A stretch of 64,000 bases of DNA, from positions 1,483 to 65,482 of the forward strand of contig CAZAXO010000001.1 in NCBI GenBank assembly GCA_964489085.1. The letters are read 5' to 3'. Below, one piece after another: positions 6,698 through 64,000 of the stretch. The DNA comes from an uncultured Candidatus Bathyarchaeia archaeon (lineage in GTDB: Archaea > Thermoproteota > Bathyarchaeia > 40CM-2-53-6 > DTGE01). Positions within the stretch are counted from its first letter, which is position 1. Every line of letters starts with the position of its first letter. The notes under the pieces are model-generated. The model ran no database searches. It was not told the origin of the DNA and was given only the letters and a program-made list of their open reading frames with translations. Position numbers and translations under genes: made by a program.

Positions 6698-8248
6698 TTA
6701 TTTTTTAATGAAGTTACTAGCTTCTTTTTGAACTTTACTATATCTGTTATCTGACAACCATTCTCCAAATCTACCAATGGTACTTTCCATTATTTTATGG
6801 AATCTCTCATAAAATTCAAACTCGTGTTCATTAGAATTTTTGGATTCATCCGTGTGTGCATATTCGTGACACAAAAATCTATATATTTGAGCCATTGTAC
6901 TCTCGTAAATTTTGGCGTCCATAAAAAATTTCATGTTTATAGTAATATATGTACTACCGTCAGTCCATCCATTCAACTCTTTAGATGCTTTCATGAGTTT
7001 TAACTCTCTAACCGGTTGACCCTCAAAAACGTAATCATTCAAAAATTTTGCAGCATAAAACAATGTTCGCTTAACCTGAGATTTCAAATGTTTAAAAAGT
7101 TCATTTATATCAACCATTTTCTCACCCTTATCAGTCAAAACCTCAGCAGGCAACTCTTCCCGCATTGAGATTCTAAAAACTTCGTAACCTTCAGTACCAG
7201 CGATACGATTGATTGCTCGCTCAAACCTCTTATCTACGACTAAATATCCACGTCGTAAAGCCCTATCAGCGAGTTTAGAACCACCTTTAGCAAAATATAT
7301 ATCATCATAGGATTTAAGCACATTTATGCTAACCCTTTTTCCATTTGCCAAAAGAATAAGTTCTTTATCCTTTATAGTATCAAGCGAAATATCACCAGCC
7401 ATAAATTTGTCAACTATAATTTTAGCCAAATCTGGTCCGAACTTATTTCGTTTTTTGATATGACGTTCTTCTATTTCTTGAATAAATCTAATAAATCTCT
7501 TTTTTCTGTTCGATTCAACAAAATCGTTCCTAGCAAAATTGGTCTCTATCTTTTTCTTTACATTATAACTGACATTAAAAATACTATGAGAATCTTTAAC
7601 GTAAATTCCCATAGCATATAAACTACCACCGTAGGTACCACCGTAGGACGAATCCTTTAACTTAAATGCTTCAAAAATTTCATTTTGTTCAATTATTTTA
7701 TAATCGGGTTCAATCAACTTTTTATTTATAAACACTTTAGATTTTACCATATAAAAAGTCCTTTCCAATTGTCTACATATACCAGAGACCCTATACGACT
7801 CCATCCCGTCGTATAATTCGACATAGGAATTAGTTCCATCCACCTTCTTATCTAACTTATCTAAGGTATACGATAGACCGTTCTTTCTCACATCAATCTC
7901 TATCTTGTTAAAAAGAGATTCTATTGTAATCCTACCATACTGCATCATCTGAAGAATCCCAATGCCAAAGAAACCTATTTTGGTTTCATCGTCCCTTTTA
8001 GTAGAATCACCAATAGTTTCGAATTCGTTACGTATAATCTCTTCGGTCATACCAGAGCCATCATCTATTACCGATATGTAATCTTTGGTAATAGTGATAT
8101 TAATATTAGCTGAATCGGCATCAATCGAATTTTGAACAACCTCAGAAATAGCCTTTCTAAGGTCTGTACCCTGATACTTCATCATCAGGGAAATTAATTC
8201 CTTTCCAGCCTTAAAGTCCCTTCTTTCCATTTTCTTGACAACCTCCAA
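6698..8248 (-). CDS. GHKL (Bergerat-fold) ATPase with C-terminal HExxH motif
   Basis: N-box EVVQNSIDA, G1 box IDDGSGM and G2 box GFFGIGIL near the N-terminus. C-terminal LCHEYAHTDE is a zincin-like HExxH. Confidence 0.5.
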   Translation of the reverse strand: MEVVKKMERRDFKAGKELISLMMKYQGTDLRKAISEVVQNSIDADSANINITITKDYISVIDDGSGMTEEIIRNEFETIGDSTKRDDETKIGFFGIGILQMMQYGRITIESLFNKIEIDVRKNGLSYTLDKLDKKVDGTNSYVELYDGMESYRVSGICRQLERTFYMVKSKVFINKKLIEPDYKIIEQNEIFEAFKLKDSSYGGTYGGSLYAMGIYVKDSHSIFNVSYNVKKKIETNFARNDFVESNRKKRFIRFIQEIEERHIKKRNKFGPDLAKIIVDKFMAGDISLDTIKDKELILLANGKRVSINVLKSYDDIYFAKGGSKLADRALRRGYLVVDKRFERAINRIAGTEGYEVFRISMREELPAEVLTDKGEKMVDINELFKHLKSQVKRTLFYAAKFLNDYVFEGQPVRELKLMKASKELNGWTDGSTYITINMKFFMDAKIYESTMAQIYRFLCHEYAHTDESKNSNEHEFEFYERFHKIMESTIGRFGEWLSDNRYSKVQKEASNFIKK

Positions 8249-8345
8249 AATGATTATTTATAATTATAATAATCATTTGGTATATTTAAATATTTGTATG
8301 ATAAATGGCTTGTTATAATATTAAAAATAGATTTTAAAAAAAAGT

Positions 8346-9665: not shown

Positions 9666-10043
9666 TTAAACCTCTTTTAATATTTGTCTTAAATTCATAA
9701 TAACATATTTACATGCGTAAAGACATCCGTAATAATATATATCTTTCCACTTGTTCTTACTCTTTCTTACTTTTTTTGTATAACTTTTAAATCTATTAAA
9801 TAGATCATCGATAAAAATATCGAGTGGTTTTTTATCGGTCTCATTGGTAAATCTGCGTAATGTATATATTATACCATCCTTCATTTCTTTTGGTACTTCT
9901 ACAAACTTATCGAAAATGAGTTGATATTTGCTACTATCGTAAAACATAATTTCGTTAGTTATCTTGGTATTAATAGTTTCTTTTAGTTTCTTTTTTATTT
10001 CTTTTAAGGCTTCTATGAGTTTCATGTTGTCACCTTTGTACAT
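9666..10043 (-). CDS. hypothetical protein
   Basis: 125-aa ORF. Confidence 0.35.
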   Translation of the reverse strand: MYKGDNMKLIEALKEIKKKLKETINTKITNEIMFYDSSKYQLIFDKFVEVPKEMKDGIIYTLRRFTNETDKKPLDIFIDDLFNRFKSYTKKVRKSKNKWKDIYYYGCLYACKYVIMNLRQILKEV

Positions 10044-10942
10044 TCTCCTATAGCATATGATGTATATTGACTTAATTCCTGTCGTTGTTCTCGAGTTAAC
10101 ATACTCATATATCCTTCATCCCATAAAAATATTTGTACGTTTCTATACCTAGACTTATATCTTAGAATAATTTCTTCTCTGAGTCTTGTCTCAGCGAATT
10201 CATCACCGTTTCTAGCCAGTTCTTTTAACAAAGGAAAGCTTAATTTTGAATCCAAGACTCTTGTGTCGTAACCGTTTTCTACCCATGCTTGTACGTTGGA
10301 ACAGTGTCCCATAAATTCTTCGTCTGGAGTCAACATGGTTGTGTCGGACTCATTCCTGTTCGAGTATAAATCTACGATTTCATCGATGCTTTCGAAGTCG
10401 TCGTTCGAATGGTTGCAGGGGATGCTAATCAATAGATATGAACATTGCATAAATTGATTATTATTTATATAAATTCGTGTACGATTATCATGTTTGACTA
10501 ATTTTAAAAGGGAAGAACGAGGATTTGGATAAAATACTTTGTGAACTAGCCCTTTAGCTCCTATAAGACTAGCTCCAAATAGATCAGTCTTGTCGAAATG
10601 TGTATTATTTAGATTAGACCCTTCAAGATTAGCATCTCTTAGGTTGGTTCTGGTGAGATTAGCCCATTCAAGATTAGCTCCTTGTAAGTTGGCTCCCTCA
10701 AGATTAGCTTCTTGTAAGTTGGACCTCCCTAGGTCTGCTCCTTCAAGACAAGCCCCTCTGAGATCAGATATATTTAAACTAGCCCACCTCAAATTGGCAT
10801 TTTTAAAGTTAATATCCTTTAGATCAGCATTTGTAAGGATAATTTTCGAATAATCTACTCCCTCAAAGTTTGCCCCTCGTAGGTTAGCACCTTTAGTTGG
10901 TATTTTAGTAATACTACCAGTATCAGTATCATAAAACTCCAT
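10022..10942 (-). CDS. pentapeptide-repeat protein
   Basis: About 25 consecutive A(D/N)LxG pentapeptide repeats (ANLRGANFEGVDYS...ANLEGANLQGANLEWANLTRTNLRDANLEGSNL), followed by a unique C-terminal domain of about 150 aa. Confidence 0.7.
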   Translation of the reverse strand: MEFYDTDTGSITKIPTKGANLRGANFEGVDYSKIILTNADLKDINFKNANLRWASLNISDLRGACLEGADLGRSNLQEANLEGANLQGANLEWANLTRTNLRDANLEGSNLNNTHFDKTDLFGASLIGAKGLVHKVFYPNPRSSLLKLVKHDNRTRIYINNNQFMQCSYLLISIPCNHSNDDFESIDEIVDLYSNRNESDTTMLTPDEEFMGHCSNVQAWVENGYDTRVLDSKLSFPLLKELARNGDEFAETRLREEIILRYKSRYRNVQIFLWDEGYMSMLTREQRQELSQYTSYAIGECTKVTT

Positions 10943-10969: not shown

Positions 10970-11980
10970 CTATAATAAAGCACTTATTGGTACCCAAGAA
11001 TTAAAAGTTTTACCATCAACTTCGATAAAAGCCTTAATAGCTTTTGGTGTCCTAGTCTCAACATCTTTGATAACACCGTTTTTACTAATAGAAAAATTCT
11101 TTTCCATTAGCCATTTTTTTACTGATCTTCCAATAAATTCATCATAATTAGTAGTTACAATACTTCTAAGTACTTCAATTTGTTTATCCGTCAAACTTCC
11201 ACGCTCAAAAAATAATTGTTGAAACGAAAACAAATACTGTCTCTCATCCTCATTGAGTTTATCAACAATATTAGTAGCTTTATTCAAAATTCTAGTTATT
11301 TCCTGAAATCTATCTTCGTTTTTAGATTTTAATATTTTATTTGCCACATCTAATTGCTTGTCCGAAAAAACTCTCATATTATTATGTTGTGTAACGACTG
11401 ATATTATAAAACTCTTCTCCCAGTTAGTTAGTATTTTAGTTTGTTTATTTTTCTTAAAGCAAGTAACAAGTTTCTTTACAATTTCATGCTGTTCACTATT
11501 ATCAGTTAAAAACTTAGCCACCTTCTTTTTGTGACCTTCTACCTTCATTAGTTCCTTCAAATGAACCGACTTTTTCTTTCTAGCACCCTTAACAATTTCC
11601 CTGAGAATACCAGCTAACTTCTTAAAATCGTAATTTACATCTTTCGGATGTGGAATATCCTTAGTAAAATCTCCTAACTCATCTCTAGCAATAATCCATA
11701 GATATTTACCAGCCCTAAGAACATCTTCATCGTTAAGTTGATCTTCACTTAAGTTCCAATATTTTAATATGAAAGGTTTGGCAATGCATACATTGCCGTA
11801 AACATAGACGTTACCATCTGAATCTTTGACTTCAACACCATACCTGATCGGATGGCCTTCCACACAGGTACCTGCGCCAAATTTTCCGTAGTCAATCATA
11901 CCAACTATCTCAAACTCCTTATTAGATAAGTATAAGGAGTTTTCAATGTTAATCCTACTCACGATTTTGATAACCTCCAA
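10970..11980 (-). CDS. hypothetical protein
   Basis: 336-aa ORF. Confidence 0.4.
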   Translation of the reverse strand: MEVIKIVSRINIENSLYLSNKEFEIVGMIDYGKFGAGTCVEGHPIRYGVEVKDSDGNVYVYGNVCIAKPFILKYWNLSEDQLNDEDVLRAGKYLWIIARDELGDFTKDIPHPKDVNYDFKKLAGILREIVKGARKKKSVHLKELMKVEGHKKKVAKFLTDNSEQHEIVKKLVTCFKKNKQTKILTNWEKSFIISVVTQHNNMRVFSDKQLDVANKILKSKNEDRFQEITRILNKATNIVDKLNEDERQYLFSFQQLFFERGSLTDKQIEVLRSIVTTNYDEFIGRSVKKWLMEKNFSISKNGVIKDVETRTPKAIKAFIEVDGKTFNSWVPISALL

Positions 11981-12031
11981 TTTTTTTTTAATTTTTTGAT
12001 TTAATTCTCAATTTAAAATAAAAAAAAGAAT

Positions 12032-12331
12032 TTAAATTAATTTATCCATATGTTCTAGAATATAATAAAAAACCGAATGATTTAGATGTTTGTTCCATTC
12101 TTCAGCAGTATGAAGGTTATTTATTTTACACATTTTTATAACATTAATTTTCATACCAAGAGCTTCAGAAGGTTCTCGAAAACCTCCTATTCTGGTATCT
12201 CTACCACAAATAGGACAATTCATAGATAAAGAAAAATGCGTACCTCGATTTATACAATAAAATTTATCCAAAACTTCTTGTGTTATTTCAAGATCTTCTA
12301 AGTTTTCCATTTTTTTTACTAAGCTTTCCAT
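12032..12331 (-). CDS. zinc-ribbon small protein
   Basis: 99 aa with a CPICGRD zinc ribbon. Confidence 0.35.
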   Translation of the reverse strand: MESLVKKMENLEDLEITQEVLDKFYCINRGTHFSLSMNCPICGRDTRIGGFREPSEALGMKINVIKMCKINNLHTAEEWNKHLNHSVFYYILEHMDKLI

Positions 12332-12334
12332 TTT

Positions 12335-12616
12335 TTAAACCACCCTTTTCCTTTTATTTGTTCTCATTGTTTTATGTCCTTCTTGGAGAACATAAAAATA
12401 GGTTCCATCCTCCACGAGATATTCGTTAATATCTCGATGGATTTTAAGGGGCAAAACTCTTTTCATTCCATGAGGCTTTTCCTTTGAACCCCCGCAAAAT
12501 GAACATATTTTCACGGGGCGGGCACTATTCAAGAATAACGACCCACACGAGACACATTCGTCAATAAAAGGTTTTTCTATTGTTTGTAAAAAATGCTTAT
12601 TTTTATTCATTTTCAT
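12335..12616 (-). CDS. zinc-ribbon small protein
   Basis: 93 aa with CVSCGS...CSFCGGS. Preceded by the conserved promoter-like element. Confidence 0.35.
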   Translation of the reverse strand: MKMNKNKHFLQTIEKPFIDECVSCGSLFLNSARPVKICSFCGGSKEKPHGMKRVLPLKIHRDINEYLVEDGTYFYVLQEGHKTMRTNKRKRVV

Positions 12617-12643
12617 ACTTTTCTAATCACTTTTTTTATTTTA

Positions 12644-12682
12644 TTTATATAAATATAAACAATTATCATATTTAAATATATA
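12644..12682 (-). promoter_or_regulatory. conserved TATA-rich promoter-like element (copy 1)
   Basis: TTTATATAAATATA(A)ACAATTATCATATTTAAATATAT lies 28 bp upstream of the 12616 start. A second copy at 18887..18925 matches in all but 2 positions. Confidence 0.45.
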
Positions 12683-12685
12683 GGT

Positions 12686-13078
12686 TTATGTATCATCATC
12701 TAAAATAGTCCATCTCCCTGATTTATATATTACAATATAATCACCGATATTCAATTGATAATATACTTTAGCATAATTCTGATAAATTCTAGTTTCATCT
12801 ATTTTAAAATCATTTAAGGCATACTCCTTTCCATCTATTGTAATAATATATAATTTGTGCAAACCATCCTCTATTCTCATATCTTCAATCGCTCCTTCGA
12901 GAACAACGGTTTGATCGTCTATTTTCTTCTGTTCTTCCATATATGAATAGGCACAACAAAATATAATCAAAAAAGTCGTTAAAAGAGAAATTATTACAAT
13001 AATTACCTCCTGTGTATCGTCCATTATTTTATCCACCTCCTTAATATCTATAAGACACTTTATTTGATTTATAACCAA
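12686..13078 (-). CDS. small membrane protein
   Basis: 130 aa with one TM helix (IIVIISLLTTFLIIFCCAY). Confidence 0.35.
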   Translation of the reverse strand: MVINQIKCLIDIKEVDKIMDDTQEVIIVIISLLTTFLIIFCCAYSYMEEQKKIDDQTVVLEGAIEDMRIEDGLHKLYIITIDGKEYALNDFKIDETRIYQNYAKVYYQLNIGDYIVIYKSGRWTILDDDT

Positions 13079-13388
13079 GTAGATTTTCTTTTAATTTCAT
13101 AGGTGGATATTTACCAGACACAAAAACCTTTTGAGTTGTCATAAAAAAATAGGAACCATCGTGTTTCCTACAATATCTACCATTATAATAATACCATTTG
13201 AACATACCATCAGTGGTAAGAAACATCCTACCTTCAGGAGGTTTGAACTTATTAAGATCAGAATCTACAACTACCAATACTTCCATACTATAAGGGTCAA
13301 CTATTGCTACTCTACCCTTATTCTTAGTCAATTGTTCTCTGATATCCTTCGTTAACTTTATTAATTCAATCTTAGGTATTAAAATCAC
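13041..13388 (-). CDS. hypothetical protein
   Basis: 115-aa ORF. Confidence 0.3.
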   Translation of the reverse strand: MILIPKIELIKLTKDIREQLTKNKGRVAIVDPYSMEVLVVVDSDLNKFKPPEGRMFLTTDGMFKWYYYNGRYCRKHDGSYFFMTTQKVFVSGKYPPMKLKENLLGYKSNKVSYRY

Positions 13389-13423
13389 CTTACTATTCCT
13401 TCATAATCAGAAACCCTATAGAA

Positions 13424-14314
13424 TTACAACAAATTCAATAAATTATCTCTGGCTGTTCTAAGAGAGACAGTAGTAACCTCTAAAATCTCTGATATATCAT
13501 CCTGTCTAAGACCCCAGTCGTACTTATCAGATAATACGTAAATTATACCAGCAGTAGAACACAACTTATTCCTACCACTATAAATACTATCATACATGTT
13601 AGAGAAATTATAACCATCGGATAATATATCATTCACACTACCATTCAACCCACCAAATTTATTATTTAGGCGGTATATATAATGTCTGACGTATCCATGC
13701 AGAGGCACAGCCTTAACCGGTTTCAAATTGTATTCCTTAATCATTCCATAATGTAATTTCATAACAGTTTTCATATTTAGCTTACCACTATCGTTATTCT
13801 CATCCTTCACATAACCATCATCACCAAAAAAACTCAACATATTTCTTACGTTGAAAGGTGTTTCATGTAATCTAAAACAATAAATTAGAATAGCCATAGC
13901 AAACGCCGCATTACTATAACCAGATAATTTTTTATCTATTGTTTTAAGAATAAGATATTCTACATCCTTTTTAATATCACTATTATCCATTTCAATATGT
14001 TTAAAGTATTTCTCACTCAAAATTTTAATAGTAATACCCTTACGCTTATAACCAGGATCCCAATTTGATACCCTTTTAATTCTACTAAATGTACTTTTAT
14101 CCTTTACGTTATTCCTAATTTCAAAAGTAGTCCTTCGAGTGTTAAAAATACCAGATACAACCTCAGTATGCACCTTATTTCTCACATCTTCACTATCATA
14201 TACTCGACTACGCATAGAGACATATCTATCAGTTCTAACAACTAGACCACAGTCAATACAAGTCACATAAATTGAGTTTTTAACTATATTAATATGCCTA
14301 CATTTATCCACCAT
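13424..14314 (-). CDS. tfb: TFIIB-like transcription factor
   Basis: N-terminal Zn ribbon CRHINIV...CIDCGLVV (the CxxCGLV signature). Two cyclin-fold-like segments (SNAAFAMAILIYCFRLHETPF, and GRNKLCSTAGIIYVLS...VSLRTARDNL). Length 296 aa. Confidence 0.65.
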   Translation of the reverse strand: MVDKCRHINIVKNSIYVTCIDCGLVVRTDRYVSMRSRVYDSEDVRNKVHTEVVSGIFNTRRTTFEIRNNVKDKSTFSRIKRVSNWDPGYKRKGITIKILSEKYFKHIEMDNSDIKKDVEYLILKTIDKKLSGYSNAAFAMAILIYCFRLHETPFNVRNMLSFFGDDGYVKDENNDSGKLNMKTVMKLHYGMIKEYNLKPVKAVPLHGYVRHYIYRLNNKFGGLNGSVNDILSDGYNFSNMYDSIYSGRNKLCSTAGIIYVLSDKYDWGLRQDDISEILEVTTVSLRTARDNLLNLL

Positions 14315-14454
14315 ATTATATACCTCCTAATTTCTAAATTTACACTCTGCTTCCTTATAATCATCACATTTGTAATTTTTACCATCGCACTCTATTGATA
14401 GATGTTTTTTATTAAAGCAATATCCTAATTCGTAATACTCACACAATGACATAT

Positions 14455-15054
14455 TTATCCCTCTAAACCATTTAATATTACATTTAATCTATCTCTTTTT
14501 TTACTTAATAATTTAATAACTATACTTTTTAATTTCATAAATAAATTAATATATTCTTTATTATCGAGTCCACCCCTTAAAATATAGGACGGATGGTAAA
14601 CCGGATACACATAATACTCTATCATGTCTTTCCTTTTTACAAATAACTTACCTATACTACTTTTCATACCTCGGTTTTTAATAAAATACGACGTTGCGGT
14701 AGAGCCTAATGTTACTATAATCAAAGGTTTCATTTGACTCATCTCATATAATAAGTGTTTTCTACAACTATTAATTTCGTCCCACGATGGTGTCCTATTA
14801 TTTGGTGGCCTACATTTTACTATATTAGTAACATAGAAATACTCTCTATTTATACCAGCTTTTTTCATAGATTCAGTTAAAAGCATTCCACTTCTACCTA
14901 CAAATGGTTTACCAAGTTTTACTTCAGTACCACCAGGTGCTTCTCCTATAATCATCAAATTATAGTTTACATTTCCAGAACCAGATATAACTTTGTTATC
15001 TCCAGTATATAGACCACATTCCTTATCTACGCAATCTATTAATATTCTATCCAT
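14455..15054 (-). CDS. udg: uracil-DNA glycosylase, family 4 (Fe-S type)
   Basis: Motifs GEAPGGTEVKLGKPFVGRSG, NIVKCRPPNNRTP and HPSYILRGG, plus Cys residues that fit a 4Fe-4S cluster. Confidence 0.8.
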   Translation of the reverse strand: MDRILIDCVDKECGLYTGDNKVISGSGNVNYNLMIIGEAPGGTEVKLGKPFVGRSGMLLTESMKKAGINREYFYVTNIVKCRPPNNRTPSWDEINSCRKHLLYEMSQMKPLIIVTLGSTATSYFIKNRGMKSSIGKLFVKRKDMIEYYVYPVYHPSYILRGGLDNKEYINLFMKLKSIVIKLLSKKRDRLNVILNGLEG

Positions 15055-15055
15055 C

Positions 15056-15370
15056 TTAACTAATCTCTACCATCTCTAGCTCAGTACTATCTATTTCAAC
15101 TACATTTAATTTCTCTATCTCTTTATCATATGAAAACTCTGATACTTTCCTACCCGAATTCATTATAAATTCTTTTAGCTTATCCTTAAGCCAATAAGTT
15201 CTATTATATTTGGTAACTGATATTCTATATTTACTAAATTCTTTAAATCCTATTTTTTCACTAGTTAAATAAGTTTTTATATCACTCTTAAGAGTATCTT
15301 TGATATTATTCAAAATAGAAATTTGTTTACTTATCTCGTGGTATTTCCTTACTTGATCCTCTATTGACAT
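15056..15370 (-). CDS. hypothetical protein
   Basis: 104-aa ORF. Confidence 0.3.
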   Translation of the reverse strand: MSIEDQVRKYHEISKQISILNNIKDTLKSDIKTYLTSEKIGFKEFSKYRISVTKYNRTYWLKDKLKEFIMNSGRKVSEFSYDKEIEKLNVVEIDSTELEMVEIS

Positions 15371-15579
15371 AAAATAATTCCAATTTTTTTATTTACGTTT
15401 TTTATCTCTGTATAAATTAGATTATATAATTTATTTATTTTTTCATTTAACTTATATTTATCGAAGTTTTTCAATAATAAAATTAATTCATCTTTAAAAT
15501 ATTCTTTAGTTATACTTTTTTTATTATTTTCGTGTACTACAGCTTCAGTATATAATTTTTCAAAGTCTATATTCTCCAT
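15361..15579 (-). CDS. hypothetical small protein
   Basis: 72-aa ORF. Confidence 0.3.
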   Translation of the reverse strand: MENIDFEKLYTEAVVHENNKKSITKEYFKDELILLLKNFDKYKLNEKINKLYNLIYTEIKNVNKKIGIILCQ

Positions 15580-15970
15580 CAGTTTTTATCTTACTAAACC
15601 TCCTACTTATAAAAGATATCTCTTCTTTAGAAAATTTGATTTTAGTATCGAAACTAACATTATTAGATCTCATTATTTTTTGATAAATTACCATTAATAC
15701 CAATACTTTGTCTAATACTGATGACTCAATTTGCTTGACAGTACCATTTTTTAAGTCGTATACTCCATAACTAACCCTTTTAAATTTATCTTTATGATTA
15801 TACAACGTTGTATTAATGGTATTCCTTGTAACCTTACCATAGGATGGATCTTTATTTAACTCGTTAACTATCTCTATAAGTTGCATAGATCCTTCTTTTT
15901 TTAATAATTTTTCTATCCTATCAACTAAATACATGTTATTAATAACGTTAAACGATATAATTGACATCAT
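15560..15970 (-). CDS. hypothetical protein
   Basis: 136-aa ORF with a 4-nt overlap with the upstream gene. Confidence 0.35.
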   Translation of the reverse strand: MMSIISFNVINNMYLVDRIEKLLKKEGSMQLIEIVNELNKDPSYGKVTRNTINTTLYNHKDKFKRVSYGVYDLKNGTVKQIESSVLDKVLVLMVIYQKIMRSNNVSFDTKIKFSKEEISFISRRFSKIKTDGEYRL

Positions 15971-16776
15971 AAAACACGTTTCATCCTGTTAAACTCTTTT
16001 AACATTCCCTCCAACTCTTTTTTATATAAACTCTTTCCTGTTTTGACGTATTTATACATTTTACTTAAATACCATTTAAAATTTAACATATCAATCTCAC
16101 TAATTCTATTCACATTACCTCCAGTAAACAATTTAACTAATGATTCACTCTTTGTAGGCCCTACACCACTAATTCTATTTGAAACTATGGTTGGATCCCG
16201 TATATTCGATATATCTCTTATTGTATAATATTTCCTAGCTTTTTTCGATAAATTATATCCCCAACCTTCGGCACAAGATATAGCACCTATCTCTCTATCA
16301 TCGGTAGATGCTATTGGTTTATATAATTTAGTAAAATCTATGGTACCAGTAGAATGTTTAAGTATAGATACAATCATATAGGCAGATTCCTCCTTATTGG
16401 CAGAATGGTAAATACTGACACCATACTTAGTCATTAGTGAACCAAGGGCTCCAAGTTTACTCTCGGTACTCATTTGGGAAAAGACGTTATTTATATCCCC
16501 TTCTATTAAGATGATAACACGACTAAACCCATTTTCATACATCTCTATGACCTGTCTAAATAATCTACCATCGGCAATAGAAGAAACATAATCATCTTTG
16601 CTTTTTCTTTCTATTCCAACATTTCCAACTTTAGAGTCCTCACCCCTAATAATATAATCGCATACAGGGAAATGAGAAGAAAATACTCTACATTTAATAT
16701 TATATTGAGAAATATTGATTCTTAAATACCTAATCATAATAGATGGTTCTCTATTATCCACACCAAGTTCCATCAT
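15967..16776 (-). CDS. ERCC4-type (XPF/Hef/Mus81-like) structure-specific nuclease
   Basis: ERCC4 signature GIERKSKDDYVSSIADGRLFRQ. The start overlaps the helicase stop by 4 nt. Confidence 0.6.
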   Translation of the reverse strand: MMELGVDNREPSIMIRYLRINISQYNIKCRVFSSHFPVCDYIIRGEDSKVGNVGIERKSKDDYVSSIADGRLFRQVIEMYENGFSRVIILIEGDINNVFSQMSTESKLGALGSLMTKYGVSIYHSANKEESAYMIVSILKHSTGTIDFTKLYKPIASTDDREIGAISCAEGWGYNLSKKARKYYTIRDISNIRDPTIVSNRISGVGPTKSESLVKLFTGGNVNRISEIDMLNFKWYLSKMYKYVKTGKSLYKKELEGMLKEFNRMKRVL

Positions 16777-18884
16777 AAAAATACTGCAGCTCCCTTTTTA
16801 ATTTCCATTATACTATCAGTCTTTAAACCTATAATTTCAGATAATTTAGAAACTGATGTAGAAATGAATTTTTCAACCGAGTCAATATTTCTACTTAATA
16901 GTGAACTTAATCGTTTCTCACCAATACCTTTCAATTTAGCTAACTCTATGATACCACCCGTTATGATACCATGTTTAGCCCCTATTAGTAAGTCAGTTAA
17001 TTCCTGCTTGTAATCTCTAAATAGAATCGAAGAAATAGATAAGAAACGTTCAGAAGCACCAAGTACAGTATACTTATCACCCGAACTGAAGGTGAAATTC
17101 TTTTTAACTTTATTTATTTCTTTGTTAAGTTTGCCTATTTCGTTAGCTATTGTATATTGATCATATTTTTCTACATATTCTACTTTCCGTTCTAACTCAT
17201 CTATCCTATCTTGATATTCCGTCGTTTCTTTCATTATTAATTCTTTATGATAAGTAAGAGCAAAAATTTTCATTATATTACCAGAAAAATCTATATACTT
17301 ATCCATTATTTTATACCCAAAATGTCTGGTTATTTCCTGTCTTGGTTTAATAAAATCTATGGCATAATCTATCTTAGTTTGATCGTTATCATAAGCTACC
17401 ACTATGGATGCATATTCTGGAGCACTGGCTATTAAACAGAATAATTCTCCATTGGTCAAATCTTCCTTTTTATACAACACTCTCTCCCAGTGAACAACCG
17501 TTTCCGGTTGTATTGAATACTTTGAAGTCATTCTGCCCTTAAAGGTAGGTACCAATCTATCACCATTAGTATGAACAAATCTGTGTTTCGTTAACCAATT
17601 CAACTCACTTACTAATAAATCTCTAGTTATAGTATTATCCATAAGGAAATTTTCTATTAAAGAAAACTTATCAACATCGGTCACTATCTCAGAAACCACC
17701 CATCCAAGTTCGTATTTCTTAAGGTAGTTCCTCAACTTTGACTCAACCAAAAGTGGTCTTTTCATATGCTCAAGTACTTCCTCCTTTTCAGACTCAGCAC
17801 AAAAAACGAAAGCATATCCCATTTTGGAAAAACCAGGTCGTCCAGCCCGACCCATACTTTGTTCTAAACGGTCTTTTTCAATTAGTTGTCTACCAAGTAA
17901 ATATGAATACTGATACATATCGAACATTACGACTATATCAGCAGGTAAATTTACTCCCATTGCTAATGTGGGAGTAGCAGCAACTATGTTAATTCTACCA
18001 CTTCTGAACATATCTTCAACTTTGTCTTTTTCCTCAACCGACATACCAGCATTATGCCAACCCATTTTATAAGTGTATAATGCTTCATTTAATTTAATAT
18101 TATTATTATGAGTAAGTTCGGATATTACACCCCTAGTTCTGGATCTTGAAGTCGTAAATATGAGAATTTTCTTATCTGGAAATTTAACAATAATTTTACG
18201 GATAATATCGACTCTCGCCTTTATATCCAACCAATAATTATAGTTTTTGCGATATGTCATAACGTATTTTTTCAATGGTACAGGTCGTTCGTCTTTACCA
18301 GCACTTATTAACGACATTTTTAAATCATCGGAAAATTTTACCGGATTATCAATAGTAGCAGATAAACCAACGATTTGACAATCAGGAAATAAAACTCTAG
18401 TCATTATCACATCACATTCCACTATACCACCTCGTGACTCATCACCGTAGTTATGAACCTCATCTATAACTACTAGTCCGAGATTAGAAAAGATTGTACG
18501 TTTATTCACATCATTAAGAATAACATAAAACCTCTCATATGTAAGTATAGCAATATTCCAATCACCGTACTCATCTATTTCCTTCCTGTTATCACCATCA
18601 TCTAAGATAATTCTACTTTTTGGAAAATATTTCTTCAACTCAGCGGTTTGCTCCTTAGTTAAAACTTTCAATGGTGACAATAAAACTGCTCGTTTTCCAA
18701 CACTTAAAGTCTTAGCTATTGCCATAATAGCAATAGGTGTCTTACCATAACCCGTAGGTAAGACAGTAATGAAATTTTTCCGCTCATTAATTAAAGGTAT
18801 AGCCTCCTCTTGACGAGGTCTAAGCATAAACGGAAATGATAACCCATAAACCTTAGCGACACTCATATTTCTTTTGACCTCCAA
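16773..18884 (-). CDS. SF2 DEVH-box helicase (Hef/Hel308-like) with C-terminal HhH
   Basis: Walker A LPTGYGKT, VIDEVHNYGD, motif VI SMGRAGRPG and a C-terminal LAKLKGIGEKR helix-hairpin-helix. Confidence 0.75.
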   Translation of the reverse strand: MEVKRNMSVAKVYGLSFPFMLRPRQEEAIPLINERKNFITVLPTGYGKTPIAIMAIAKTLSVGKRAVLLSPLKVLTKEQTAELKKYFPKSRIILDDGDNRKEIDEYGDWNIAILTYERFYVILNDVNKRTIFSNLGLVVIDEVHNYGDESRGGIVECDVIMTRVLFPDCQIVGLSATIDNPVKFSDDLKMSLISAGKDERPVPLKKYVMTYRKNYNYWLDIKARVDIIRKIIVKFPDKKILIFTTSRSRTRGVISELTHNNNIKLNEALYTYKMGWHNAGMSVEEKDKVEDMFRSGRINIVAATPTLAMGVNLPADIVVMFDMYQYSYLLGRQLIEKDRLEQSMGRAGRPGFSKMGYAFVFCAESEKEEVLEHMKRPLLVESKLRNYLKKYELGWVVSEIVTDVDKFSLIENFLMDNTITRDLLVSELNWLTKHRFVHTNGDRLVPTFKGRMTSKYSIQPETVVHWERVLYKKEDLTNGELFCLIASAPEYASIVVAYDNDQTKIDYAIDFIKPRQEITRHFGYKIMDKYIDFSGNIMKIFALTYHKELIMKETTEYQDRIDELERKVEYVEKYDQYTIANEIGKLNKEINKVKKNFTFSSGDKYTVLGASERFLSISSILFRDYKQELTDLLIGAKHGIITGGIIELAKLKGIGEKRLSSLLSRNIDSVEKFISTSVSKLSEIIGLKTDSIMEIKKGAAVFL

Positions 18885-18886
18885 AA

Positions 18887-18925
18887 CTTTTTTATTTTTA
18901 TATAAATATAGACAATTATCATATT
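18887..18925 (-). promoter_or_regulatory. conserved TATA-rich promoter-like element (copy 2)
   Basis: Matches 12644..12682 in all but 2 of 39 positions. It sits directly upstream of the helicase gene and contains the palindromic ATATTTAAATAT. Confidence 0.45.
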
Positions 18926-18958
18926 TAAATATATGTTATGATTATACATATATTGAAC

Positions 18959-19843
18959 CTATACCAGCGACATTACCTTTCGGTTAGACTCCAATATTTC
19001 CATAATCTTCCCTATTTCATCTATATATTTCAAAATACATCTCTGTTTAGCCTCAGTCATAGTTAAACCAGACTCTCGTATCCAAATACTATCCAAATTA
19101 TCGTCAAATGTACGACCCTTCTTCATTGGTATTCCCCATGACCAAGTATCAACAGAAGTAAATTCAAATCCGTATTTGAGTAAACTCTTCATAAAAGTTA
19201 AATTTCCACCAAATATATGTATCTTTGGATTATTAAACCTCCTGTTTAAATAATTACAAACCTGACGCCGTATTTCTATAAAAAAATCGTACATATCACC
19301 ATCCATGTTGGTAATACCACCACCTCCGATACCCCAATACTCCACCTGTTTTAAATCGAAGTTCTCACCTAACATATCTACAAATAGTAATTTTTCATCG
19401 ACACTATTCCCTTGTATGGGAATAATTAACTCGTAATTCCTATCCATATCGAATTGTTCTATGTAGTTATCTATAGTCTTTCTCATATATGGTAATCTAT
19501 CTTCGTACCTATCCCCTATTTTTTCAATTAAAGATGCTGTATTGTAATCCAAACAAACACCTGAATCTGGATTAATAAAGTTTAAACAATCATTATATTC
19601 AGAAACAGTAAACGGATAATCTGGATAATTCTTTAAAATATTATAACCACCTGAATCAATCATAAGTTTTTTAACGTTCCTAAAAACGTCGGGAAATGTA
19701 TTTACAAAACAACGATTTTTGTTATCATAGGATTTCAAAACACTCTGTAACACACAAAGTTTAGTATAATCAACCCATATATTCCCAGTTCTACGAGTAA
19801 AAAGAAAAGAATTTTCAACTACAAAATAAAAATCTTCAAACAT
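18959..19843 (-). CDS. dpdA: DpdA-like tRNA-guanine-transglycosylase-family protein (7-deazaguanine DNA transglycosylase candidate)
   Basis: MIDSGGY matches the TGT catalytic DSGG(F/Y) motif. At 294 aa it is too short for ArcTGT with PUA domains. It neighbours the preQ0 biosynthesis genes. Confidence 0.5.
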   Translation of the reverse strand: MFEDFYFVVENSFLFTRRTGNIWVDYTKLCVLQSVLKSYDNKNRCFVNTFPDVFRNVKKLMIDSGGYNILKNYPDYPFTVSEYNDCLNFINPDSGVCLDYNTASLIEKIGDRYEDRLPYMRKTIDNYIEQFDMDRNYELIIPIQGNSVDEKLLFVDMLGENFDLKQVEYWGIGGGGITNMDGDMYDFFIEIRRQVCNYLNRRFNNPKIHIFGGNLTFMKSLLKYGFEFTSVDTWSWGIPMKKGRTFDDNLDSIWIRESGLTMTEAKQRCILKYIDEIGKIMEILESNRKVMSLV

Positions 19844-20168
19844 TTATTTCTATTCCTCCTCAAAATCGTGGCAAACCCTAAATAACCACATATCCATTTT
19901 ACACTCGTCGCAATAACCCATATTATTTGGGTTTAATGGATAATTTGTCCAATGAGCGCATCTTCCACATATCTTCCTTGAGTTAATCATTTTCTTCCCT
20001 CAAATCATTTACCATTTCCTTCAATTCTTTAGGATGAAACTTATAGTAAAAATCAGCCCAGTCTCTCACCATACAAGAAGTATGATCCATCATACAACCA
20101 GAAACCACATTAGTAATAGCTTCTCGTTCTTCTTCGGTAAATTCTTGTTTTGACATCTTTACCTCTTC

Positions 20169-21002
20169 TTATACATTTTCCTTTAATTTATGCTTATGTA
20201 GTCTAACAAATACCCTTATATCTGGATTAACCTTTCTCAAATATACTCTTCTGGCTTTCAATAATTCAAGATTAGATATTAAATTAACCCAAAATCTTTT
20301 AGTAAAAATAATAAATATCTTTCTCCATATCCCCTTATATTGTTTCATCAATTCATAATAATACCAATACGGATTTTTATCCCATTTAGGCTCCCAATAC
20401 CACTTAACCCATAAACCATTGTTTATCTCAGCTACCCACCGCCTTAAACAACTTATACACCATCCACACGATCTATGCTTATTATCGTAGCAAGACACCG
20501 TAAAATTTTCTAAATCCTCTACATCTCCACCTTTCTTAATATACTTTTTCAATAATTTAGTCTTTGTATACCTTCTAACTGGAAATTCAATTTTTACCTT
20601 CCTTTTAGTTTGTAATCCAAGAACATCGTCCCAACAATAAGAAATTATATTCTGAGCCATTTTCCTAAATTTATTAGTCTTATCCTTACTAGTTTCACCC
20701 CTGAGAGCACACAAATAAACTATATCCCCGTAAAAACTAGCTATTTCAATAAAGAATAAATTTCGTAAAGGTATATGAGCATTATCCAACTCAAATCCAA
20801 GTATACTACTTGCATCTACAATGATGAGCCTACCTCCGAATCCCCCAAGTTCATCAAACGCATTAATAATTTTTAACTCTTTTTCTTCGTATCTGGAACC
20901 TGTCTTAATGTATAGTAATATATCTGGTTCAAATAGGAAATTACATATAAAACTATCCATTCCACCTGAATACAGTAAGACGGTCTTTTTCTCACTTGAC
21001 AT
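20169..21002 (-). CDS. queC: 7-cyano-7-deazaguanine synthase QueC
   Basis: PP-loop VLLYSGGMDS, YIKTGSRYEEKE, and a C-terminal CGWCISC zinc site. Confidence 0.7.
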   Translation of the reverse strand: MSSEKKTVLLYSGGMDSFICNFLFEPDILLYIKTGSRYEEKELKIINAFDELGGFGGRLIIVDASSILGFELDNAHIPLRNLFFIEIASFYGDIVYLCALRGETSKDKTNKFRKMAQNIISYCWDDVLGLQTKRKVKIEFPVRRYTKTKLLKKYIKKGGDVEDLENFTVSCYDNKHRSCGWCISCLRRWVAEINNGLWVKWYWEPKWDKNPYWYYYELMKQYKGIWRKIFIIFTKRFWVNLISNLELLKARRVYLRKVNPDIRVFVRLHKHKLKENV

Positions 21003-21312
21003 TAATCATTTCCTCCCTAAAATGTATAATTAATTCACTAATGGCATGTTTATAAATCATACTACAATCCGTCGAAGTTTCTATTACGTATAAGTCATCA
21101 TCTAACCAATACATTTTTTTTATGTTATGAAAAAACTTAGGTTTAGGATATATACAATAATGTAACTCAACAAAATCTATTTTTTCTACATCTTCATCAG
21201 AGGTAAAAACAAAGAAACTAGATATATGATCACTCTCTTCTGCTTTCTTAAATAATCCCATTTTACATATATCCTTCAAAAAATCTATTATATTTTTTAC
21301 TGTGAGTCGCAT
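20992..21312 (-). CDS. hypothetical protein
   Basis: 106-aa ORF between queC and the membrane-protein gene. Confidence 0.3.
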   Translation of the reverse strand: MRLTVKNIIDFLKDICKMGLFKKAEESDHISSFFVFTSDEDVEKIDFVELHYCIYPKPKFFHNIKKMYWLDDDLYVIETSTDCSMIYKHAISELIIHFREEMINVK

Positions 21313-21649
21313 GGTCTAAAAATATATGTACATATATTATAAGTAGTATTCTAAGGATAATATCTACAATAATTAATTCATTTATAAAAACAATTACAAA
21401 TAGTAAAATAATAAAGGTAATAGTTGCTAAGAATCTATAACTATGTAAATATAAATGTAACTTACCTTTAAAGCCTAATAATTTATCTTGCGTATTTTTT
21501 TGCCATAAATCACTAACTATATATATGAGCATAATATCAGGCAAAAATGATATAATAACACCAATAAACCCAAAAATAATAAAAGATATAACTACAGTCA
21601 ATATAGTATTAATTATATCTAGCATTATTTTTATTCTTCTATTATTCAC
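21263..21649 (-). CDS. small polytopic membrane protein
   Basis: 128 aa with 3-4 predicted TM helices. Overlaps the GT gene start by 4 nt. Confidence 0.4.
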   Translation of the reverse strand: MNNRRIKIMLDIINTILTVVISFIIFGFIGVIISFLPDIMLIYIVSDLWQKNTQDKLLGFKGKLHLYLHSYRFLATITFIILLFVIVFINELIIVDIILRILLIIYVHIFLDHATHSKKYNRFFEGYM

Positions 21650-22620
21650 AGGACAACCCTATATTTAGATAATTTTTGAATATATTTAAATTCATTTATA
21701 TCTATTATCTTACCATCAAACAATCCAAACAATTTTATTAATCCTAACTTTATCCCGTACATAAATGCCCGAATCTTTAATTTAAAAGGCTGTCCCTTCA
21801 ACTTTATATTATTTATTATAGATAGTAACATACCAATAGGATCTAATCTTCTAAATAAATATATTATTATCTCATTTCTAAACATTAAATAATGTCTGAA
21901 CTTATCAAATTTAGTAATGAGCAACTCTACATTATGTTCAGCAATAGTACTAGGTTGAAATATACAATAAACATCCTTTCTAAATGCTGTATTACTAATA
22001 TCTTCATGGTAAACAAAAAACTCAGTATCAAACCAAAGTTCCTTCTCCTTAAACATCCAAACATCCAATAATACACAAGTAGTTATCATATGACCAATAC
22101 TTATTGATTCTGAAGGTATATCATCAATTTCACCTTTACGTATCGTATTATTAAAATGTTTATTATATTTACCGTAAAACCAAATTCTATTAGTACCACC
22201 GTACAACATTTTTGGACATACAGCATATGTTCTATATTTCTTAATAATATTAAGTAACATTGATATAGTATCTTTCCTAATATAGGAATCAGAATCACAT
22301 ATTAGCAAATACCTAGACACACATTCCCTTATTATTCTATTCTTACCGTAGGAAGCACCAAGATTGGAACCCGAATAAATAATATGAAAGTTTAGTTTTA
22401 TGTATTCAAATAATAGATTATATAACCTATTAATATCAATAGAACTATAACTATCATTAACTAACAGAATTACCTCCCCTATATAATTCCTTTCATATCT
22501 TAACGAATTAAGTAATAAACGTAAACCATTAAATTCATTATTAAACACAATACCTACAGTTATCCTATTCTCATTATACCAATATAAATCGAGGCCGGAT
22601 TTAGTAATGTTTATTTTCAT
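21646..22620 (-). CDS. family-2-like (GT-A fold) glycosyltransferase
   Basis: N-terminal VGIVFNNEF...LLLNSL, LLVNDSYSS, and a DxD-like CDSDS. Length 324 aa. Confidence 0.5.
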   Translation of the reverse strand: MKINITKSGLDLYWYNENRITVGIVFNNEFNGLRLLLNSLRYERNYIGEVILLVNDSYSSIDINRLYNLLFEYIKLNFHIIYSGSNLGASYGKNRIIRECVSRYLLICDSDSYIRKDTISMLLNIIKKYRTYAVCPKMLYGGTNRIWFYGKYNKHFNNTIRKGEIDDIPSESISIGHMITTCVLLDVWMFKEKELWFDTEFFVYHEDISNTAFRKDVYCIFQPSTIAEHNVELLITKFDKFRHYLMFRNEIIIYLFRRLDPIGMLLSIINNIKLKGQPFKLKIRAFMYGIKLGLIKLFGLFDGKIIDINEFKYIQKLSKYRVVL

Positions 22621-22635
22621 TTTAATCCCCTTTTT

Positions 22636-23952: not shown

Positions 23953-24066
23953 TTAAATCAACTCTGGTCCTTCGATATATGTTTTCATTTTACCATTAGG
24001 TACAAAAATACGACACGAATCACCGTGACTGTGAAATTCAATAGTATCCCATTCAATCTCATCCAT
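23953..24066 (-). CDS. 37-aa ORF translationally coupled to the radical SAM gene (candidate precursor peptide or small protein)
   Basis: MDEIEWDTIEFHSHGDSCRIFVPNGKMKTYIEGPELI. Its TAA stop directly abuts the ATG of the radical SAM gene. It is below the ORF-track size cutoff. Confidence 0.2.
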   Translation of the reverse strand: MDEIEWDTIEFHSHGDSCRIFVPNGKMKTYIEGPELI

Positions 24067-24226
24067 TTTTTAACGATCTACCAACTTAGGTTTCTTAATT
24101 TTATCCATTAGTTCATCGACTTCATCTGGAGATAATATAACCTGACTACCTTCTATTATTATCCTATAAAAATCTTTAAACGAACCACTCGTTAGCTTCT
24201 CAACATCAATCGGTATTTTTACCATA

Positions 24227-24535: not shown

Positions 24536-24660
24536 GATTTTTTATCCCTCTGACTTCTCAATAAATATTAACCAACGTGAATTTTTCCAATTCTTCATTT
24601 ATTCGCATTTTCTTTTTTACAATATAATAATACTCTAAAGAAATTTATATAATCAGACAA

Positions 24661-27225: not shown

Positions 27226-27424
27226 AATTTATTTTTTCAACTCATTAATATTAAATCTCTATAATATAAAAAATAAGTATTATTTAAATAATTAATTAAA
27301 ATCGCGATTAATTAGAAATATATTTATTTATAAAACTCATATTATATGTATCATAACCATTTATATGTTACATAGTCAAACTTAATCAATAAAATAATAA
27401 AAAAAAAGATAAACAAAAAAAAAA

Positions 27425-34459: not shown

Positions 34460-34490
34460 TTAAATAAAAACATTGTTAATATATAAATTT

Positions 34491-61884: not shown

Positions 61885-62035
61885 ATTATGAAAAAACATA
61901 ATATATTATGGAATTTCATAATATTTATAAGGTAAAATTATGTTTTTTCATAATATATTTAAATCAGTATTATGTAAACTCATAATATTTATAAATTGAT
62001 ATTATGTAAGAACATAATATTTAAATATGTTAATT
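61885..62035. promoter_or_regulatory. array of about five palindromic CATAATAT / ATATTATG iterons in a divergent intergenic region
   Basis: Elements seen: cataatatattatg (a perfect 14-bp palindrome), attatg-N6-cataatat, tattatg-N6-cataatat and atattatg-N6-cataatat. The region lies between minus-strand and plus-strand gene blocks. Confidence 0.5.
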
Positions 62036-62075
62036 GTTTATATTTATATAAAAATAAAAAAATTTGGAGGTCAAA

Positions 62076-62336
62076 ATGTTAACCATTAATGATGAGTTGA
62101 TAACTCAAGAAGAATTATCTAAATTATATGAAACATCTATATCTTATTTTAAGGAATTATATCCAGATTCCTTTAAACCATGTTTAATGGTTTGTACATG
62201 GCTTAGTGGAAATTTTCCGGTTTTTTGTGTTGAAAAAAGTAAATTGGAGGAATCTGTTGAGTTTAATTCGTTGTGTAGTATGTGTTGTGAAAGAGAATGG
62301 TGCTTTAGAAATGATCACTCTGAGGAGGACACATAA
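62076..62336 (+). CDS. small Cys-rich protein (C..WCF..H..EE family)
   Basis: A GGAGGT Shine-Dalgarno site lies 5 nt upstream of the ATG at 62076. The tracked ORF starting at 62064 begins with TTG. The protein ends in CCEREWCFRNDHSEEDT. Confidence 0.45.
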   Translation: MLTINDELITQEELSKLYETSISYFKELYPDSFKPCLMVCTWLSGNFPVFCVEKSKLEESVEFNSLCSMCCEREWCFRNDHSEEDT

Positions 62337-63528: not shown

Positions 63529-63813
63529 ATGGGTGAATTAGATATTGTTGATGATACAATAGCCAGACTTGAGAATGAGCTTCATGTGGAATCAAATAGG
63601 AGGATGAATATCTTCGTAGATGATACTGTAAAGGGCAATACTGGTACTTATAGGTTTAGACAATGCTGTGATTGTTGTGAGTGGTTGGAAAAGGAGCTTG
63701 AGTATATGCATATTTTCAAAAATTTGGTGGATCCCAATGGTGATAAAAGAATAAAGAAGGTATATAATAGGTATATTAAGAAGCAGAGGAAGATATTAAA
63801 TGATACTAGATGA
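63529..63813 (+). CDS. hypothetical protein (CCDCCEW motif)
   Basis: A GGAGATGGTG Shine-Dalgarno-like site lies upstream. Length 94 aa. Confidence 0.35.
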   Translation: MGELDIVDDTIARLENELHVESNRRMNIFVDDTVKGNTGTYRFRQCCDCCEWLEKELEYMHIFKNLVDPNGDKRIKKVYNRYIKKQRKILNDTR

Positions 63814-64000
63814 TATAATTGACTTGTTGAGTAAAGAAGATTTAACTGCTATTGAGGTAGCAGAGAAATTAGGTATTGATTATAACAGGGCTTCTTCCTA
63901 TATAAATACTTTATATAAACGTGGGAAAGTTACTAAAATAGATAAGGATATGCCGTGTGTCTATAGGGCTATAACACCATTATTTTTGCTTGGTAAACTT
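63800..64000 (+). CDS. winged-helix (HTH) DNA-binding protein, partial at window edge
   Basis: LTAIEVAEKLGIDYNRASSYINTLYKRGKV is HTH-like. The ORF is open to the end of the window. Confidence 0.35.
   Translation, partial: MILDDIIDLLSKEDLTAIEVAEKLGIDYNRASSYINTLYKRGKVTKIDKDMPCVYRAITPLFLLGKL

Follow-up and report, generated by a model that had tools for sequence, protein, structure and literature searches.

In a 64,000-nucleotide stretch of DNA (contig CAZAXO010000001.1 of assembly GCA_964489085.1, positions 1,483 to 65,482; hereafter the window), we found a repeated AT-rich intergenic element of roughly 50-60 bp that we read, with a probability of roughly three in four, as a virus-specific archaeal promoter cassette, which would be reused in front of unrelated transcription units in an archaeal virus-like genome of ~70 kb. 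What is observed directly is the repeat itself, its orientation, its constant geometry, the archaeal gene context in which it stands and the conservation of its position in a relative. The census of the element covered ~68.6 kb of the ~70-kb genome (the window and two Logan contigs) and is nearly complete.

The repeat, TTTATATAAATATA(A/G)ACAATTATCATATTTAAATATAT, occurs at 12644-12682 and at 18897-18935 with 37/39 positions identical. A preliminary description of the window had reported this 39-bp duplication and its degree of identity, and had placed the first copy correctly (12644-12681/2), while its position for the second, 18887-18925, was off by 10 bases from the actual 18897-18934/5. A third full copy, absent from that description, lies on the opposite strand at 62015-62052 with a plus-strand gene downstream, and was recovered with 3/38 mismatches in a search allowing 3 mismatches; the 38-mer gave zero matches in 100 dinucleotide-preserving shuffles of the window. 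The pairwise similarity exceeds 39 bp in each comparison (49 nt at 94% between copies 2 and 3, 46 nt at 91% between copies 1 and 3, and 47 nt at 91% between copies 1 and 2), and every one of the three strict copies, 46-49 nt long and 91-94% identical, is intergenic. Whole-window repeat finding ranked the cassette first among the non-coding repeat families, and TATTTAAATATG is the sole 12-mer common to at least three upstream regions. Each copy does contain the perfect 12-bp palindrome previously noted, ATATTTAAATAT, which is present five times in the window against an expectation of 0.27. Of these sites, four (8282, 12668, 18921 and 62017) fall between genes, coding sequence making up 91% of the window, and the fifth, at 33698, is intragenic; the latter was excluded from the family, being a bare 12-mer whose next start codon is ~250 nt away. 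The element is not restricted to two sites, the condition under which the preliminary description would have taken it for a recent local duplication: in addition to the third, inverted copy there are two degenerate copies and a positional equivalent at the orthologous helicase gene of a relative. A structured-RNA reading was dropped, since the RNA folds of the three copies were no better than those of shuffles (z +0.59, -0.21 and +0.80).

Anatomy and geometry of the copies

Read in the direction of the gene, all full copies have the same layout: the palindrome ATATTTAAATAT (box A), a spacer G(A/T)TAATTGT(T/C), an AT-rich block TATATTTATATAAA (box B), an A-rich leader and the ATG, with copies 2 and 3 sharing in addition a Shine-Dalgarno (SD) site, GGAGGTCAAA, between the leader and the ATG. 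Boxes A and B are near-duplicates of each other (ATATTTAAATA and ATATTTATATA) standing 23 bp apart, and in all three copies the core of box A, TTTAAATA, and box B, TTTATATA, are exact TTTAWATA octamers, the form in which the archaeal TATA consensus is quoted (PMC11065993). Cassette copy 1 (12617..12679, minus strand) runs from the palindrome to the base preceding the ATG at 12614-12616, with box A at 12668-12679, box B at 12644-12657 and an A-rich leader that has no GGAGG. Copy 2 (18867..18932, minus strand) precedes the helicase ATG at 18864-18866 and has box A at 18921-18932, box B at 18897-18910 and the SD site GGAGGTCAAA at 18873-18882. Copy 3 (62017..62075, plus strand) has box A at 62017-62028, box B at 62039-62052 and GGAGGTCAAA at 62066-62075, directly before the ATG at 62076.

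Of the two degenerate copies, one (8231..8293, minus strand) lies upstream of a GHKL ATPase gene and retains a perfect box A (8282-8293) and a GGAGG SD site, its AT-rich box B region having diverged, with 60 nt between box A and the ATG; its existence had been reported before, at 8290-8320, a position that has to be corrected to ~8271-8293. The other is found just past the right end of the window, at 1394-1444 of locus L007. Across five sites on both strands the copies are all directed towards a gene, the distance from the first T of TTTAAATA to the start codon is 49-63 nt, and box A is 44-47 nt from GGAGG wherever GGAGG exists. In the three full copies box A TTTAAATA is 56-63 nt and box B TTTATATAAA 33-40 nt from the ATG; counted from the end of the box, the spacing of TTTATATAAA to the start codon is 27, 30 and 23 nt, in agreement with the spacing first described. 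The bases 5' of box A are CTATATA, ACATATA and CATAATA, with an A at -3 and no G at -6.

Choice of the TATA box

The preliminary description had proposed an archaeal promoter composed of a TATA box and a transcription factor B (TFB) recognition element (BRE), and this framework fits, given the archaeal-type replication and repair genes, the oligo-T terminators without hairpins and the lack of a sigma-70 pair in the element. Within this framework we favour box A as the probable TATA box. Host TATA-binding protein (TBP) would bind box A at TTTAAATA, the core of the palindrome ATATTTAAATAT, TFB would contact the bases immediately 5' of it, and RNA polymerase would open the AT-rich box B TATATTTATATAAA and start at the T/A step of its TATAA core, near 12646, 18899 and 62050. 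With box A at -30 to -23, the predicted +1 is this same pyrimidine-purine step. The transcript would have a leader of ~30 nt, rich in A, which in copies 2 and 3 would bear the SD site GGAGGTCAAA.

The alternative given in the preliminary description takes box B, TTTATATAAA, as the TATA box, so that transcription would start 3-10 nt before the ATG to give leaderless mRNAs or very short leaders, the palindrome being a separate upstream site for a regulator. We consider this version unlikely, even though box B is a perfect TTTAWATA octamer at 33-40 nt from the start codons, a TATA-like box stands 31-38 nt before the ATG in four further upstream regions (9425, 26493, 50859 and 52902), and GGAGG is missing both from copy 1 and from the helicase promoter of the relative; moreover, in one cassette copy of the relative the interval between a TATA-like box and an ATG is exactly 30 nt, and the alignment described below shows no variation in the TATAA core of box B. 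With box B as the TATA box, the predicted starts would be near 12623, 18876 and 62073, that is, 3' of the SD site, and the conserved and properly spaced GGAGGTCAAA of copies 2 and 3 would fall outside the mRNA, for which reason the assignment of TTTATATAAA as the TATA box is probably wrong. SD cores (GGAG, GAGG or longer) are present at 37% of 113 genes and at 4% of random positions, indicating that SD use is under selection in this genome; since GGAGGTCAAA is common to copies 2 and 3, it should lie inside the mRNA, which argues for box A.

The distribution of TATA-like octamers across the window bears on the same question. These octamers are enriched 31-80 nt upstream of genes that are first in their unit, compared with internal genes (34 promoter-bearing gaps), and in the 31-40 nt bin 6/10 matches are box B of this very element; once they are set aside the mode is 50-80 nt, against what box B as the TATA box would predict. 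Examples of the TATA-to-ATG distance at SD-bearing genes are 60, 56, 62, 70/53 and 79 nt. As the distance of the palindrome box matches that of other promoters of the genome, copies 2 and 3 are unlikely to give leaderless mRNAs. Furthermore, the degenerate copies and the relative have all kept a perfect box A, while box B is reduced there to its TATAA core (TTATAATTATAA and ATTATTATAAG, respectively), a difference in decay that again favours box A. Use of both boxes as TATA boxes appears improbable.

Conservation in relatives

A second alternative is the recent copying of one segment by recombination or gene conversion, in which case the long identity would reflect recency and the copies would share only an ordinary promoter meaning. 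The identity is indeed even, the 1-3 mismatches in 38-49 nt leaving boxes and spacer alike well matched, an evenness that a basal archaeal promoter does not need, and no relative above 80% average nucleotide identity turned up that would separate selection from copying. On the other side, the copies are 6.2 and 43 kb apart, one of them inverted, with only the regulatory segment in common and unrelated flanking genes, and the degenerate copies preserve box A and its distance to the start codon.

Comparison with relatives speaks to this point more directly. No close relative with the element was found by megablast against GenBank phages or by searching for the exact element in IMG/VR and the JGI metagenomes, and a pattern scan for helicase relatives gave none in IMG/VR and a weak 31% partial match in the metagenomes; helicase relatives were recovered by a large protein search. 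Among them, JGI contig Ga0073583_1160439 (locus L013/L014) encodes a helicase 55% identical to that of the window and conserves the synteny around it, with QueD, QueE, FolE and a 294-aa DpdA-like gene followed by the helicase. The sequence directly upstream of its helicase gene reads CTTATTATTCAATAAC ATTTAAATGTGATAATT TATTTATAATTATTATAAG, with ATTTAAATGTGATAATT and an in-register TATAA, box A being 62 nt from the helicase ATG compared with 63 nt in the window. An alignment of six sequences (A1) shows ATTTAAAT without variation in 6/6, with the TATAA of box B likewise unchanged and in register. Among the fetched loci, the 17-mer that the window and the relative have in common occurs only at these promoter sites. 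With >120 single chance matches in IMG/VR it is not diagnostic by itself, and what counts as evidence is where it stands; this positional conservation was examined at one orthologous position, the helicase promoter.

The stretch upstream of the relative's helicase is itself one of three copies of a cassette of its own, composed of a T-tract, the palindrome CTTATTAWTTAATAAC and TATA-like boxes, and L002, a further related contig, carries two copies of a 62-nt cassette laid out in the same way. The retention of box A, of the TGATAATT flank and of an in-register TATAA before an orthologous helicase whose protein is only 55% identical, together with the multi-copy cassettes that relatives have of their own, makes recent copying a rather improbable explanation. 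Promoter cassettes that are repeated and virus-specific, with a dyad immediately 5' of the TATA box, seem to be a trait of this virus group, and the helicase seems to be driven by such a cassette in both genomes. In the relative L013, three tandem 20-nt units (ATGGAATTCTGGTTAATTCT) lie between a cassette and the next gene, at 4001-4066 of that locus.

Control region at copy 3

Copy 3 stands in a divergent gap between a minus-strand unit and a plus-strand block of ten small genes, and directly upstream of it we found an array of five exact ATTATG-N6-CATAAT dyads (61885..62018, plus strand; starts at 61885, 61905, 61937, 61969 and 62001). All five exact occurrences of this pattern in the 64 kb fall within these 135 bp, where ~1 would be expected in the window even at one mismatch. 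The last four dyads follow a 32-bp period with a TATA-like box after each, and the final one ends 2 nt inside the palindrome of copy 3 (box A); at copies 1 and 2 only degenerate versions of the dyad are present. The dyad pattern gave three unrelated single matches in IMG/VR, one of them (L009) bacterial-phage-like. The array is probably an operator array, and it may have an origin-related role, in replication initiation. Beside the BRE and TATA box, it would be bound by a dimeric regulator, for which the TrmB-type protein encoded downstream is the most plausible candidate, and which would control the copy 3 unit; that the TrmB-like protein is the binder is conceivable, if somewhat doubtful.

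These dyads also bear on a further alternative, in which the palindrome would be mainly an operator for a dimeric viral or host regulator instead of a TBP site, the core promoter lying elsewhere in the cassette. An operator would be compatible with the perfect 12-bp dyad symmetry of the palindrome, with the frequent binding of archaeal regulators to dyads overlapping the BRE or TATA box (PMC11065993), and with the TrmB-type winged helix-turn-helix (wHTH) protein encoded downstream of copy 3. However, the invariant dyad of the adjoining array is ATTATG-N6-CATAAT, which differs from the palindrome, the TATA-like boxes of the array vary (ATTTATAAGG, ATATTTAAATCA and ATTTATAAAT) as TBP sites would and a specific operator would not, and the core of the palindrome is identical to the TATA consensus. 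We regard the operator explanation as having a low probability.

A more elaborate scenario, to which we give little credence, would join these parts. The cassette and the 32-bp array would form a master early switch, in which a TrmB-type repressor on five phased dyads would gate TBP and TFB, and two tandem TATA boxes 23 bp apart would give both SD-led and near-leaderless mRNAs, that is, two modes of translation initiation. The switch would belong to a previously undescribed group of viruses or mobile elements of ~70 kb, with hosts among the uncultivated archaea of marine sediments, possibly Asgard archaea, in which few SD sites have been reported.

Genome context and type of host

The window has ~30% G+C and carries most of its genes on the minus strand. 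Judging from its genes and signals, the genome is archaeal in type: its family-B polymerase is nearest to haloarchaeal tailed-virus polymerases, at ~24% identity, is itself found on a 69,955-bp contig and has relatives 48-56% identical in marine-sediment metagenomes that include Loki's Castle LCGC14; the flap endonuclease of XPG/FEN1 type has exclusively archaeal homologues, of which the best named are from Promethearchaeota/Lokiarchaeota (38-41%); and an RFC-like AAA+ protein is encoded as well. Many intergenic gaps start with T6-T10 tracts that have no hairpin, as expected for archaeal termination.

A bacterial-type phage promoter, read by sigma-70 or by a phage-specific RNA polymerase, could be argued from the GGAGG before many genes and from the weak match of the GHKL protein to PHROG RIIA. 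This explanation has a very small probability. No copy has a TTGACA/TATAAT pair 16-18 bp apart, and sigma-70 matches in the window are at or below shuffle expectation (37 vs 43.8 and 4 vs 6.4), so that a sigma-70 promoter was rejected. No RNA polymerase or sigma factor was detected. Hairpin-type terminators numbered only 3 in 7 kb, with none in the gaps, and oligo-T tracts are common. The FEN1/XPG, ERCC4/Hef, RFC-like and TrmB genes, together with a polB nearest to archaeal viruses, suggest an archaeal host.

Several observations weigh against the reading of the element as a viral promoter cassette built on box A. Box B is a perfect TATA octamer as well, and the choice of box A comes from geometry and the SD argument only. 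GGAGG is absent from copy 1 and from the promoter of the relative's helicase. The bases 5' of box A differ from the purine-rich BRE of strong Sulfolobus promoters, with the A at -3 in place and no G at -6. Copies 1 and 2 have no oligo-T terminator upstream, and would thus be internal, reinforcing promoters. At copy 3, a T5GT5 tract and a hairpin at 63199-63281 may cut the TrmB gene off from the transcript. The SD use of 37% contrasts with the nearest named homologues of the FEN1 protein, which are from Promethearchaeota/Lokiarchaeota, SD sequences having been reported as rare in Lokiarchaea (PMC12993045). The lack of any relative close enough to tell selection from copying also counts here. 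Finally, the viral identity is drawn from context: in ~68 kb (the window and L007), Pfam and PHROGs recognised neither capsid, portal or terminase genes nor other structural genes by which late genes could be defined, and the genome bearing the element could be that of a virus whose structural genes escape recognition, or a mobile element of a different kind. Proteins with PKD and sialidase-like CBM domains (197-1965) are the only hint of a virion or surface function.

Genes and promoter classes

The genes downstream of the two first copies are those named in the preliminary description; the zinc ribbon after copy 1 has a CxxC...CxxC pattern, and the helicase after copy 2 has DEAD, Helicase_C and HhH domains. 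The zinc-ribbon gene (93 aa; 12335..12616, minus strand) is followed by a 99-aa gene at 12032-12331 and then, in 11963-12031, by a T8 tract. A 306-aa pentapeptide-repeat protein (10022-10942; Pfam E 4e-37) is also encoded in the unit behind copy 1 and is a possible anti-defence candidate, as such proteins can mimic DNA. The Hef-like helicase gene (16773..18866, minus strand) overlaps the next gene, for an ERCC4/XPF nuclease (15967-16776, minus strand), so that within 15967-18866 Hef is split in two genes, one for the helicase and HhH parts and a separate one for the nuclease; a UDG gene follows further downstream (14455-15054). The GHKL ATPase gene behind the degenerate copy (6698..8230, minus strand) has an HATPase_c_3 domain besides its RIIA resemblance. 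Copy 3 is directly followed by the first of the ten plus-strand genes (62076..62336), which encode proteins of 44-108 aa, several of them CxxC-rich and 8 of them with no Pfam match. The ninth gene of this block encodes the TrmB-family winged-helix regulator (95 aa; 63800..64000, plus strand, continuing to ~64087 outside the window), recognised by PF01978 at 34.8 bits (cut-off 25.6) and by a match to the TrmB structure PDB 3qph at 8e-5.

The genes predicted to be served by the cassette include those for zinc-ribbon and other small proteins, repair enzymes (Hef helicase, XPF and UDG), a GHKL ATPase and a regulator. A second upstream family was found in 4-5 copies of 75-85% identity at 33496-33531, 34458-34493, 37219-37254, 45600-45635 and 52441-52476; in gene orientation it reads AAAAATTTATAAATTATCCAAAT...TTATTATAAT, an A-rich BRE and a TATA box, and it precedes units that include the FEN1 and polymerase regions. 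It may represent a second promoter class covering the replication region (33-52 kb). Given their gene content, we tentatively place the cassette genes in an early or early-middle class, distinct from the second family at 33-52 kb. The suggestion that the repeat defines a temporal promoter class is supported as to the existence of promoter classes, a second repeated family being present, and not as to timing, for which gene content is the only guide. An inverted repeat at 45545-45635 (43 nt, 77% complementary, 5-nt spacer), in the divergent gap 45354-45686, resembles back-to-back promoters of the second class. A third motif is the GC-rich 8-bp palindrome ATCGCGAT, contained in ATCGCGATTTTAATTA and followed by TTTTAATTA and a TATA box; it occurs at 4538-4553 and 27293-27308 (minus strand), adjoining the TATA box on its 5' side in two long intergenic regions, and is a candidate binding site of a further regulator.

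The repeat had also been proposed to bind a TFIIB-like factor encoded in the window, and no such factor was found in any protein scanned. PF00382 (the TFB core) had no match in the scanned proteins or in the precomputed Pfam annotation of the gene calls, and these held no protein of 250-350 aa with an N-terminal CxxC...CxxC zinc ribbon. The best TFIIB-like match, PF08271 at 14.8 bits (cut-off 29), was to a 97-aa generic zinc ribbon and stood among 19 equally weak zinc-ribbon models. The DNA-binding candidate that was detected is the TrmB-type winged helix. TFB is encoded by some Asgard viruses (bioRxiv 10.1101/2021.07.29.453957).

Other features of the window lie outside the cassette units. 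A complete 7-deazaguanine/preQ0 gene set occupies 18959-26493 (DpdA/TGT-like 18959-19843, QueC 20169-21002, FolE 24661-25230, QueE 25227-26054 and QueD 26035-26493), and implies modification of the genomic DNA; the relative with the orthologous helicase preserves the order of FolE, QueE, QueD and the DpdA-like gene, and QueC was not seen in the 17.5 kb of that locus. A tRNA-like 3' fragment at 41619-41668 (minus strand), with a T-arm AAGGG/TTCGAAT/CCCTT, an acceptor strand ACCACCC and then an A, abuts the start codon of the polymerase, which has no SD site. It had no exact match in 185,579 species genomes over 29 nt or 24 nt, ARAGORN and Rfam made no calls in the window, this fragment included, and its fold was not above that of shuffles (z -0.74); it could represent the relic of an att site or serve in processing as a signal. 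Three long non-coding regions, at 37182-37805 (624 bp), 58272-58816 (545 bp) and L007 791-1444 (654 bp; ~67050-67703 in window coordinates), had no Rfam match and could house an origin or non-coding RNAs.

Comparison with known systems and significance

The closest parallel is offered by the class I and class II intergenic repeats of HF2 (Haloferacalesvirus), described by Russ, Pfeiffer and Dyall-Smith in 2021 (PMC8707807). They are 29-58 bp long, multi-copy, found only between genes and oriented with them, and class I precedes early-middle genes that include helicase and polymerase; a class I repeat has a TATA box and a second conserved block at the transcription start site (TSS), and mutating either kills promoter activity (PMC8707807). 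The two classes occupy different regions, their positions are kept in related viruses, and HF2 also has a complex bidirectional promoter region with phased short repeats (PMC8707807). All of these traits have a counterpart in the present genome, where they are known from sequence alone. At the same time, HF2 is haloarchaeal, its repeats are unrelated and GC-richer, and it has seven class I copies compared with three strict copies here. For HF2, moreover, activity, TSSs and scanning mutagenesis are experimental, whereas the present cassette is deduced from the DNA. In the present cassette the TATA box is a perfect 12-bp palindrome with a near-identical second TATA-like box 23 bp downstream, unlike in HF2.

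SIRV2 and other archaeal viruses provide a second parallel, namely a long virus-specific early sequence around TTTAWATA that is shared by many small and unrelated early genes (PMC11065993), with the small wHTH protein Aca8 thought to act as its repressor and, in some viruses, inverted repeats overlapping the BRE (PMC11065993). The block behind copy 3 is similar in having ten small proteins, a TrmB-type wHTH and dyads abutting a TATA box. Viruses of the SIRV2 type, in contrast, infect Sulfolobales, have a purine-rich BRE and express mostly single or leaderless genes, whereas SD-bearing leaders are seen here; the regulator here belongs to the TrmB family and is not Aca8, copy 2 drives repair enzymes instead of small proteins, and any anti-defence role would be putative. 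Compared with a generic BRE/TATA promoter, with its TATA box at about -26 bound by TBP and TFB, the cassette is alike in its exact TTTAWATA, gene orientation, meltable AT-rich region and predicted pyrimidine-purine start, and unlike in that 46-49 nt are conserved, far beyond what a core promoter needs, the BRE is not purine-rich, and two TATA-like boxes stand in tandem 23 bp apart. In the SSV1 F55 repressor system with its tandem repeats, and in phage operator arrays, phased sites overlap or abut an early or regulatory promoter in a divergent control region. Here, by comparison, the dyads are 18 bp long, follow a 32-bp period and are each paired with a TATA-like box, and the binder is only putative.

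The phenomenon is thus one already known in archaeal viruses, and the cassette extends known biology without changing it. For this group of marine-sediment archaeal viruses, whose genes have their nearest cellular homologues in Asgard archaea, no transcription signals have been described so far. Literature searches did not recover this virus group. As in the SIRV2 study, a shared motif flags small genes as candidates for early or anti-defence functions, and the cassette sequences are amenable to in vitro testing with recombinant TBP, TFB and RNA polymerase. If confirmed, the cassette would offer, for viruses of uncultivated marine-sediment archaea, a promoter that is defined, strong and portable, and with its array also a candidate operator-repressor pair.

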